Below are positions 41,216-59,690 of a stretch of 64,000 bases of DNA, piece after piece; position 1 is the stretch's first letter, and every line of letters starts with the position of its first letter. The position numbers and the translations under genes were made by a program. The stretch is from Dictyostelium discoideum (Eukaryota), in assembly GCA_000004695.1 (NCBI GenBank), contig CM000151.3:4416001-4480000 (forward strand), in the 5' to 3' direction. The notes beneath the pieces are model-generated. The model was given only the letters and a program-made list of their open reading frames with translations, did no database searches and had not been told where the DNA came from.

Positions 41216-44200
41216 TCAATTATATCTTGAAACCATTGCAATTGAATTATCACCAAAATCATCAGCAACATTTTCTTCTAATTCCAATCTATTTGATCTA
41301 TTGAAACAAGAGGAGATTTTACTATAGAGTTGGAATAAGATTGAATCATTTGGACAATGAATTGAGATTTTCTTTCTCAATTGACTAAAGGTACCAAAGG
41401 AACGATAATTTTTCAAATGAATATTGAGTTTACATTTTGCGACGATATTTACCAATTTTGAAATTTCAGACAATGGGAAAGACCAACGATAGATACCTTT
41501 CTTTGATAAACAAATCAAAGAATGAGAAGTTAAGAGTAGAGTACAATCTGGTAGAACCACATGGAATTTATATTCCATTTTAGAGGATAGCGGATTACCT
41601 TCACTCTTATTGATATCATCCGAGTTCTTTTTCAATAAAAAGTTACCTTCACTCTCGTCGACAGAATATTCTTTAATTGGTTCTCTTGGATTAATGAAAC
41701 GTGGTGTTCTTAATCTAAATCTTTCTGGATGAATGTTTGTATTGTTTCTTATACCTTCAGATGTTTTACTGGCGAAATCAAATACACCAGTGACTGGTTT
41801 GACAGCAATACCTAAAACACCTTTACCACAACCTTTAAAGAAACCTAATAGACCCTCTTGCATAGCGCCACGAACTGGATGTTCAACAATACCAAAAACA
41901 CCATCAATTATACCCATTGCAAAACCTTTTGAACCTAAATAAAAGCCATGAGCAATATGTTTTGCTTTAACCTTTTCTTCAGCGTCACGTCTTCTTAAAT
42001 AAGTTTCATCCAATGACCAAGTTGCAAAACCACTTGAAATTGTACCAAATAATTTTGAACTACTATTTGCAGCTGCATACAAAATTCTCTTCATTAATTG
42101 AATTGAACCCATAATTGGATCTTCAATGGCTTCAGTCATACCAGTACTAATATTATTGAAAAATACTAATGGACTACCAAAGATATTAGATGAACCCAAT
42201 ATAACATGAATTTGTCTTTTCATTTGTTTAGTATAATGTGATGATAATAATTGAGTTAAATTATTCATTGTTGTAAATATATTCTTTACACCTAATTGAT
42301 TAATATTTAATGGTGCATTCTCTAATTGACCTAATGATTTACCTAATGATGGAATTACTAATCTAAGTGCTGGCATTTTACTATTTTTTAAAGAAAAATA
42401 AAAAAATTAAAAAAAAGATATTAATAATTTCTCATAATTATTATTATTATTTATTATTTATTATTATTATTTTTTACTTACTTATAATTACTTAAAATAC
42501 CATCTCTTGAAATACCAAAAGTTAAATAAATTTTAATTTCAGCAAAAATTAACCATTTAATATAAAAGTTTTCAGGAATTATACCAGGTTGTTCAGTTTG
42601 AGGTTGTTGTTGCTGTGGTGAGGATGGTGAAGAAGTTGGATCAACATAAATTGTACCATTAAATTTATGAATTGGAATCTTTTGATAGAAATTATTTAAA
42701 TCTAATAGAGTTTTATCATCCAATTGAATATACATTTCATTAAGATACAAGGCGATTAAATCATAATATTTCAAATTCTTTTTCTTCATTTTAACAGCTG
42801 AATACTCTAAGAAAGGTAATGCTTGACTCTCTTTTTTCTTATCACACCATAATAAAACCGGATAGTCAGTATCGGGTTGTTGATTATCAATTTGAATATC
42901 GTCAATAATTAACCAAGTTGTTTCAGTCAAGTTTGACTGAGAAGTCCAGAAATTGAAATCTTTAAATGCAACATAAATTAATTCTTGTGGTACATCATCA
43001 ATAAAACTAAAACCAAGATTTTCAAATGAAATATCAAATGCAAATTCTAATGTATCAAGTTCTTTAGTTACACGATGTTTAGTTGTAAATAATAAATCTC
43101 TAGTTGTACCATTTGATGATTCAACAATTGGGAAAATCTCTTCTTTTAATAATTTAACTGGTTTAAATACTTTAATCTTATTTAAATTAATATCTTGTGT
43201 TATAATTGGTGATGTATCTTGACCAATATTTTGATTTTCATTATTATTATTATTATTATTATTATTATTATCATTATTATTTTTATCATTATTATTTTTA
43301 TTATTTTTATCATTATTTTTATTTTTATCATTATTATTTTTATTTTTATTATTATCATTATTTAAATTATTATTATTATTATTAATATTATTTAAACTAT
43401 TATTTAAATTACCAATGTTAATACCACCATCATTATGATAATGAACAGTTAATTTTCTTTCACCACTTGGGAAATCCCAAGTAAAATATCTATCTTCATT
43501 TGGTTTTAAAGTATATTTCTTTGAATTTGGATGTTTTTGTTGATAGGAAATGATAGTTTTAGTTTCATTTTTAATATGGAAAGGTAGGTTTTGAGGATCA
43601 TTACTATAGAAATAAACCATTGTTGATTCAGAGGTATCTCTAACTTCAACTTTAATGGATTGTTCAATTAAATCATCATGTTGATGTTGAAGTTTAATAT
43701 AGTTTACACCAATTTGATCGATACGCATACCACCAGACCATTTCCAAGAGGAATCACTTGTACCTTGACCAATTGAAATTGAGAGTTGTTGTTCCTCTTT
43801 ACCATTGAACCAATGAAATGGAATGGATGATTCTGGTCCCAACAATTGTGAATCTTTTGCCATAATTGCCAAATCTTTATTAACTTGAGTATAGGATAAT
43901 GAAATGGGTAATTTATTAACCAACACGAATCTTGGATAAATATCAACGATACGAGTTCTAAAGAAAATATTGAAACCAGTTGAAACTATAGCTTTGAATT
44001 GGAATCTCATTTGATCTTTAGAGGCGTCGAATTGAATTTCAATGATATCTTCTTTACCCAATATGATATCAAATTCCTTTGAAGGTATCTTTGGTGCTGA
44101 AGGATGATAACAATAGAATTTATCATGTGAGATCATCAATGGATCACCATTAGTTTCCAACGTTAGAGCATTCACTAATTTCATATTTGATGGTCTTAAT

Positions 44201-59200: not shown

Positions 59201-59690
59201 TCTTCTTCATTATACTAAAATGAAAAAATTTTAAATTAATTTTTTTTTTTTTTTTTTTTTTTAAAAAAATGTATTTATATATATTACTTACATCAAAACC
59301 AGTTTGAGGTATTGCATATAATGAAATACAATCAATATCGAATATAACTGGGCTAGATTTTAAATTCTATAATAAATAGGTATGTTAATATAAAAAAATA
59401 AATGAATAAATAAATAAATAAATAAATAAATAATAATAATAATAATAATAATAATAATAATAATAATATATCCGTACAGTCCATGGTATTTTTAAAGTTA
59501 AAGTACCAATTATACCTTTTTGTACATGTAATGGTAATTTAAATGATTGTAATGCTTCACCTTTAATCTCTAAATTCTTTAAAACTACATTTCCTGAGAA
59601 TACATTAATCTTTAATTGCTCTGAACTAAGATTCTTTATATATTCTCCAATGTATTTTGCTATAATATCGGCTACTAATGATTCAAACAT
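41216..59690 (-). CDS. vps13: VPS13/chorein-family giant lipid-transfer protein (about 6,060 codons). 4 exons: 59690..59478, 59367..59292 (carries an apparent 1-nt frameshift), 59214..42482, 42380..41216
   Basis: Exon 1 (MFESLVADIIAKYIGEYIKNLSSEQLKINVFSGNVVLKNLEIKGEALQSFKLPLHVQKGIIGTLTLKIPWT) is a Chorein_N domain. Its donor is ACT|GTACGG at 59477. Exon 2 (NLKSSPVIF.DIDCISLYAIPQTGFD) aligns with the VPS13A segment NLYTQPVEAVLEEIYLLIVP. Its donor is GAT|GTAAGT at 59291 and the acceptor is cattttAG at 59216/59215. Exon 3 is the track ORF 42478..59085 (ILNNIQVKIQSFHLRYEE corresponds to the VPS13 motif LQVKISSIHIRYED), a 16.7-kb open frame with poly-Q/N/S/T inserts. The last donor is AA|GTAAGT at 42481 (the track stop TAA overlaps the donor), and the 101-nt intron ends aaaaaatAG at 42382/42381. 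The final exon is the track ORF 41216..42376 (…GSPLVFFNNISTGMTEAIEDP…GIVEHPVRGAMQEGLLGFFKGCGKGVLGIAVKPVTGVFDFASKTSEGIRN), an ATG_C/VPS13 C-terminal domain. Confidence 0.85.
47927..48060. repeat. (TTG)n/(CAA)n run of about 100 bp perfect plus imperfect extension, encoding poly-Gln within VPS13
   Basis: The plus strand is a perfect TTG repeat. The minus-strand gene frame reads CAA, giving a Q35-like tract (…HQQQQQQQQQQQ…QP in the track ORF). Confidence 0.85.

Follow-up and report, generated by a model that had tools for sequence, protein, structure and literature searches.

A four-exon VPS13-type gene of Dictyostelium discoideum encodes a 6,061-residue protein probably lengthened by low-complexity inserts and additional tandem units

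We analyzed a 64,000-nucleotide stretch of the Dictyostelium discoideum genome (contig CM000151.3, positions 4,416,001–4,480,000; hereafter, the window, to whose first letter all coordinates refer). The minus strand of positions 41216–59690 carries a gene of the VPS13 family. Our reading, to which we give a probability of approximately 85%, is that this is a four-exon VPS13-type gene for a protein of 6,061 residues, which owes its length both to low-complexity inserts and to ~4 extra tandem units, and that it is most likely the annotated gene vps13B.

The gene span of 41216–59690 coincides exactly with the limits of the coding sequence, which comprises 4 exons: (i) exon 1 (59478–59690; 213 nt; residues 1–71) begins with MFESLVADIIAKYIGEYIKNL, the chorein N-terminus, and matches the Pfam VPS13_N model from model position 1; (ii) exon 2 (59292–59366; 75 nt) encodes residues 72–96; (iii) exon 3 (42482–59214) is an open frame of 16,733 nt, which encodes residues 97–5673 and supplies 2 nt of codon 5674; and (iv) exon 4 (41216–42380; 1,165 nt including the stop codon) encodes residues 5674–6061. 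The spliced coding sequence of 18,186 nt is translated into 6,061 residues and a stop codon, with zero internal stops. The 3 introns are short and AT-rich: intron 1 (59367–59477; 111 nt, GTACGG..TAG, 8% guanine plus cytosine [GC]), intron 2 (59215–59291; 77 nt, GTAAGT..TAG, 6.5% GC), and intron 3 (42381–42481; 101 nt, GTAAGT..TAG, 7% GC). The GC content of the window ranges from 17% to 39% per 2-kb block and is mostly 18–30%. Two further open reading frames (ORFs; 44355–44675 and 53001–53483) run antisense within the coding exon and were treated as chance occurrences.

The donor of intron 3 overlaps an in-frame TAA. The frame reads AAG TAA GT, in which the G of AAG is the first base of GTAAGT; exon 3 thus ends with AA, the T that opens exon 4 completes the split Asn codon, and exon 4 contributes 387 further codons. 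In a six-frame ORF list, the gene appears on the minus strand as 3 serial pieces of 101, 5,535, and 386 residues, and the TAA that terminates the 5,535-residue piece sits within the GTAAGT donor. The preliminary description of this locus had given a coding sequence of ~18.2 kb (~6,060 residues), a single 16.7-kb exon, and a last intron at 42381–42481 whose donor contains the stop of the ORF and truncates any six-frame view; the sequence bore this out. Because the donor overlaps an in-frame stop codon, ORF-based views drop exon 4 and with it the VPS13_C domain. The C-terminal exon is likewise missing from at least one published gene model, that of Synstelium polycarpum (described below).

Pfam searches revealed 4 VPS13 domains in the encoded protein. 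The VPS13_N domain (PF12624; 54538–59690 including introns, residues 1–1655) was matched with an E-value of 7.9e-166 over residues 1–381 and with 1,109.6 bits over residues 97–1655, and sequence searches of the PDB with the N region matched yeast VPS13, VPS13A, VPS13C, and the N-terminal fragment 6cbc. The VPS13_M domain (PF25033) was matched with 292–387 bits over residues 1673–3298 (model positions 1–789), and the VPS13A middle fragment 9yfw_B was matched when a profile was used (E = 6e-12). The part of the middle region that follows the tandem array described below (46759–47850, residues 3885–4248) corresponds to VPS13_M positions 511–793 and is 57–65% identical to the orthologues. It is followed by an N-, T-, and S-rich spacer (45583–46755, residues ~4250–4640), which was delimited by an entropy scan, lies mostly opposite gaps in the orthologue, and had no Pfam match. 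The VPS13 adaptor-binding (VAB) domain (VPS13_VAB, PF25036; 43459–45156, residues 4783–5348) was matched with an E-value of 7.3e-105, and in the PDB it matched the VAB domain structure 7u8t_A (E = 7.6e-06); this domain probably starts near residue 4540, upstream of the Pfam limit. The VPS13_C domain (PF25037; 41405–41713, residues 5897–5999) scored 42 bits, twice its cut-off of 21 (E = 1e-10); the preliminary description had named a PH domain among those to look for. The stretch preceding it, which has 64% identity with the orthologue from Heterostelium album, may be the usual helical region.

All features of the family that can be tested in sequence, namely N, M, VAB, and C in the canonical order, were found. 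Therefore, the protein is a VPS13, and the chorein-family identity that the preliminary description had proposed, with domain models named as the means of checking it, was upheld. Its suggestion of an ATG_C/VPS13_C C-terminus stood only in part; VPS13_C was present, and ATG_C gave no match in the current Pfam even at E ≤ 10. The VAB repeats set VPS13 apart from ATG2 (Levine 2022, PMC7613979).

The protein contains a tandem array of 6 units of ~320 residues (48259–55515, minus strand, residues ~1330–3748), each of which reaches ~400 residues in D. discoideum when inserts are included. The array was revealed by hhalign comparison of a three-species profile with itself, in which the S. polycarpum sequence served as the master so that D. 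discoideum inserts were dropped. Self-matches were found at shifts of ~309 residues (1,359 columns, probability 99.7%, E = 3.7e-27), ~650 residues (99.3%, E = 7e-21), ~975 residues (98.2%, E = 4.6e-14), and ~1,260 residues (97.5%, E = 4.8e-12). In S. polycarpum coordinates, the units start in register at ~1150, 1460, 1798, 2110, 2437, and 2740, and are ~310–330 residues long. In the controls, the array matched the VAB region with a probability of at most 13% and the N region with at most 17%.

The Pfam model and the length of the orthologue both bear on how many of these units are additional. A second VPS13_M match, above the gathering score, covers residues 3467–4286 (88 bits, E = 6.5e-25) and is collinear with model positions 122–833. 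A scan with tiles of the protein assigned residues 1673–1933 to model positions 1–203, residues 2575–2854 to 462–643, residues 3435–3794 to 88–463, residues 3885–4007 to 511–636, and residues 4150–4248 to 697–793. Units 2 and 6 both start at model position ~88, that is to say, the canonical model has 1 unit where the dictyostelid proteins have 5. The S. polycarpum region upstream of the VAB domain has 3,424 residues compared with 2,155 Pfam N and M positions, and the surplus of 1,269 residues equals 4 units of ~318 residues. Judged from sequence, the protein thus has 6 units as against ~2 in the canonical Pfam N and M layout, a predicted gain of ~4 units, or ~1,270 residues.

The second match and the periodicity could instead reflect the generic similarity of one repeating beta-groove (RBG) domain to another rather than a lineage-specific gain. 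Some self-similarity is indeed expected, since RBG domains from the central part of any VPS13 are similar to RBG2 or RBG11 (Levine 2022, PMC7613979), and the comparison of units with canonical VPS13 relies on Pfam coordinates. We consider this explanation unlikely: the length arithmetic above is independent of any similarity, the second match runs collinearly over model positions 122–833, units 2 and 6 begin at the same model position, and the N-terminal 1,000 residues had no self-matches comparable to those of the array.

D. discoideum, H. album, and S. polycarpum share the array in collinear form, and it is therefore older than the divergence of these dictyostelids. Residues 3406–3551 of the D. 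discoideum protein also cross-matched residues 1231–1374 of the H. album protein in BLAST. The preliminary description had supposed that long unique stretches could hold extra modules; by profile–profile self-comparison, these stretches are further copies of the ~320-residue unit. The repeated units are, on sequence comparison, very divergent from those of other VPS13s, though recognized by the Pfam profile. Sequence searches of the PDB with residues 1600–3300 and with a profile of residues 2100–3260 returned nothing. A phmmer search with residues 3400–3795 (48118–49305, minus strand) against 1.84 billion representative proteins returned only the 2 dictyostelid orthologues at E ≤ 0.001.

Low-complexity sequence accounts for a further part of the length. 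Approximately 26% of the residues fall in low-entropy windows, and the protein has 36 homopolymer runs of at least 5 residues, mainly N and Q. When the protein was aligned to its S. polycarpum orthologue by MAFFT, 1,237 of the D. discoideum residues between 1 and 5688 faced gaps, compared with only 81 in the reverse direction, and nearly all of the gap-facing blocks are runs of N, Q, D, S, T, and G. By this alignment, ~1,240 residues are assigned to D. discoideum-specific low-complexity inserts, in agreement with the earlier attribution of the excess to poly-Q, poly-N, poly-S/T, and acidic inserts.

Could such inserts explain the size entirely, with the core being an ordinary 12-domain VPS13 that has long disordered loops and no extra modules? 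The abundance of runs and the composition of the D. discoideum-specific blocks would suit this explanation, and the quality of the AlphaFold models described below does not suffice to demonstrate additional groove domains. By contrast, such runs are scarce in the S. polycarpum orthologue, which is nevertheless 4,537 residues long in a truncated model; we estimate ~4,900 residues for the full protein with the missing last exon included, well in excess of the ~3,150 residues of yeast Vps13 and human VPS13A. Its 1,269-residue surplus over Pfam N and M, the ~320-residue tandem periodicity (E = 4e-27), and the 2 VPS13_M matches above the gathering score likewise argue against low complexity as the sole cause, an explanation to which we give even less credence than to generic similarity of groove domains.

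One D. discoideum-specific insert contains an FFAT-like (two phenylalanines in an acidic tract) motif, EFYDDFD (47269–47289, minus strand, residues 4072–4078), which was the single match of a regular-expression scan and is preceded by a long acidic tract. On its sequence, it could be a VAP-binding site or mere low-complexity noise. If functional, the acidic loop might add a VAP/endoplasmic reticulum tether in the middle of the rod in D. discoideum only. The insert is absent from both orthologues, and we did not count the motif as a functional part.

The exon structure is established, and several observations indicate that the locus is one gene. An open frame of 5,577 codons has a chance probability of ~1e-217 at this DNA composition. 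Exon 3 has no internal GTAAGT or GTATGT donors, and the sole AT-rich candidate intron in it would break the frame. The H. album protein P0002 aligned without gaps across the exon 3/exon 4 junction at 64% identity ("ISRDGILSNYNKLPALRLLVPSLGKSLGQLENAPL"). The S. polycarpum protein P0018 has the same start as exon 1, beginning with MFESIVADIIAKYIGEYIKNLSSEQLK, and is ungapped over junction 1 (KIPWT|NLKS) and junction 2 (TGFD|YNEE); it is collinear with D. discoideum residues 1–5688 in a single model. This model ends with SNYN|SITWQ..., reading through at the codon that holds intron 3 in D. discoideum, so that the position of intron 3 appears, from the aligned sequences, to be conserved between the 2 species and the P0018 model is without its last exon. 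Very improbable, then, is a locus of at least 2 genes, or a long exon with further in-frame introns and a protein shorter than 6,061 residues: annotators have evidently struggled with these genes (in H. album, the gene is divided between PPL_05989 and a model of 757 residues, and that of S. polycarpum is cut short) and the contigs considered below proved genomic rather than transcribed, but a 16.7-kb open frame in DNA of 24% GC, the absence of usable internal introns, and the collinear orthologue all oppose it, and any split would disrupt the canonical domain order.

The orthologue models themselves are incomplete. The H. album orthologue is represented by P0017 (PPL_05989) and P0002 (757 residues), which are without the first ~365 residues, and P0018, a EukProt model, lacks ~370 C-terminal residues after the read-through of the conserved last intron.

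Structures were predicted by AlphaFold2 from three-sequence alignments of residues 2100–3260 and 3261–4290. The secondary structure of these low-confidence models consists chiefly of strands with interspersed short helices. In one unit (residues ~2545–3030), DSSP assigned ~10 strands and placed the low-complexity runs in coil, which, as far as the model can be trusted, is consistent with 2 five-strand RBG domains per unit. Foldseek comparison of the model of residues 2100–3260 with the PDB gave C. elegans LPD-3/BLTP1 (PDB 9cap) first (E = 2.9e-07, 818 columns), followed by Vps13 6cbc (E = 6e-04), with the next match at 0.36; for the model of residues 3261–4290, LPD-3 was again first (E = 1.1e-03), with the next match at 0.42. 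That LPD-3/BLTP1 is the best match of both models would fit a repeating beta-groove fold common to the 2 proteins. The likeness is at the level of the fold, since BLTP1 is of another family without a VAB or a chorein-type VPS13_N match, and the TM-scores are low. The models thus lend weak support to a beta-groove fold in the stretches that the preliminary description had called unique.

Several points weigh against our reading. Both models have a mean predicted local distance difference test score of ~35, at which groove geometry and strand count are unreliable, and the template-modeling (TM) scores of the fold matches are 0.1–0.2. The profile of residues 2100–3260 had no PDB sequence match although full-length VPS13C is present there. 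All profiles were built from only 3 sequences, and the canonical count of ~2 units was read off Pfam model coordinates. A masked BLASTP self-comparison found no internal repeat, and therefore the duplications must be old and the unit boundaries approximate. Ten Logan contigs, assembled from raw reads, carry the 386-residue ORF of exon 4 at 100% protein identity; these contigs retain the intron and are thus genomic, and they give no transcript support for the splicing. Finally, the assignment to vps13B is drawn from the presumed length of the database entry.

The vps13B entry (Q555C6/XP_644147) is presumably 6,061 residues long, and the gene described here is probably the annotated D. discoideum vps13B. 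The accessions are given in PMC7888446 and in the supplement of Leiba et al. 2017 (PMC5484366). According to Leiba et al., D. discoideum has 6 VPS13 paralogues, orthologues of all of which occur in other dictyostelids, and the domain structure of the paralogues is "essentially identical" to that of the human and yeast proteins; extra units are not mentioned (PMC5484366). The organism and family are the same here, and the dictyostelid orthologues that we found agree with that report. Neither VPS13B nor VPS13D has a specific relative among the Dictyostelium VPS13s (Levine, PMC7613979).

Comparison with other VPS13 proteins places the enlargement in context. Yeast Vps13 and human VPS13A have ~3,150 residues and 12 RBG domains. 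The D. discoideum protein shares with them the N-M-VAB-C order and sequence matches to their solved fragments, and it is ~2,900 residues longer, a difference made up of ~1,240 low-complexity residues, ~1,270 residues of extra units, and the spacer and loops. VPS13C and VPS13D have 15 RBG domains, which arose via internal duplication of RBG5–7 (Levine 2022, PMC7613979). Like these 2 human proteins, the protein described here would have been lengthened by internal tandem duplication of central groove domains; however, (i) the gain would be of ~4 two-domain units (~1,270 residues) rather than of 3 domains (~500 residues), (ii) it is located where the protein matches the first part of Pfam VPS13_M, and (iii) it is old enough to escape BLAST. 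Giant VPS13s have been reported from protists, namely Chlamydomonas (7,192 residues), Plasmodium (9,307 residues), and Toxoplasma (13,455 residues with ~38 RBG domains) (PMC7613979). By their published description, these resemble the D. discoideum protein in being oversized and in having, it is thought, an expanded groove array, and the D. discoideum protein is the smaller. Both the gene itself and the enlargement of VPS13 by internal duplication were thus already known (PMC7613979), and the six-unit dictyostelid array with its 4 extra units may be previously undescribed.

By analogy with the family, the protein would be rod-shaped, with a single hydrophobic beta-groove running unbroken along it. 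The chorein end at the N-terminus would dock at the donor membrane, usually the endoplasmic reticulum, the VAB and C-terminal domains would engage adaptors and the membrane of the acceptor organelle, and lipids would flow along the groove between the 2 membranes, with the low-complexity runs presumably placed in loops between strands. If each unit corresponds to 2 RBG domains, the protein would probably have ~20 RBG domains instead of 12 and form a bridge ~1.6 times longer. At ~2 nm per domain (Levine's estimate), such a bridge could measure roughly 40 nm compared with ~24 nm for a 12-domain VPS13.

Somewhat more speculatively, at a little under even odds, the dictyostelid Vps13B lineage may have gained the ~4 two-domain units before the group diverged, and the resulting ~20-RBG bridge may serve a contact wider than, or different from, those of the other 5 paralogues. 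The conservation of the array across the 3 dictyostelids compared here supports the early gain. Among the diseases caused by human members of the family are chorea-acanthocytosis, Cohen syndrome, Parkinsonism, and ataxia. The relation between bridge length and contact-site width is an open question (Levine 2022, PMC7613979), for which a genetically tractable amoeba with 6 paralogues, one of which probably has ~20 rather than 12 groove domains, would offer a natural length series.

The remainder of the window holds other genes. Two actin genes on the plus strand (2543–3673 and 39464–40594) encode the same 376-residue protein, which matches ACT1_DICDI, the major actin of strain AX4, at every residue. 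This identity, the exon 4 matches in the Logan contigs, the low GC content, and the short AT-rich introns confirm D. discoideum as the source of the DNA. The coding DNA of the actin genes is identical at 1,123 of 1,131 positions, and identity is 95% over ~1.5 kb when the flanks are counted. The second copy converges on the VPS13 gene and lies ~620 bp from its 3′ end. In a GC-richer block at 26–31 kb, the minus-strand coding region 26899–29349 has SLFG/GLFG repeats with spacers rich in S and T, like a phenylalanine-glycine (FG) nucleoporin, and this region explains the local peak of GC and GC skew; mechanical ORFs on the opposite strand overlap it, and no Pfam matches were found for these plus-strand ORFs. 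Two adjoining minus-strand ORFs at 21706–24971 encode SPX and EXS domains (E = 3.6e-53) followed by the end of EXS, and look like one SPX-EXS (XPR1/PHO1-like) gene with a short intron near 22752–22872. A minus-strand ORF of 1,149 residues (7293–10742) encodes a putative superfamily-1 helicase, to judge from its AAA_11 and AAA_12 domains.

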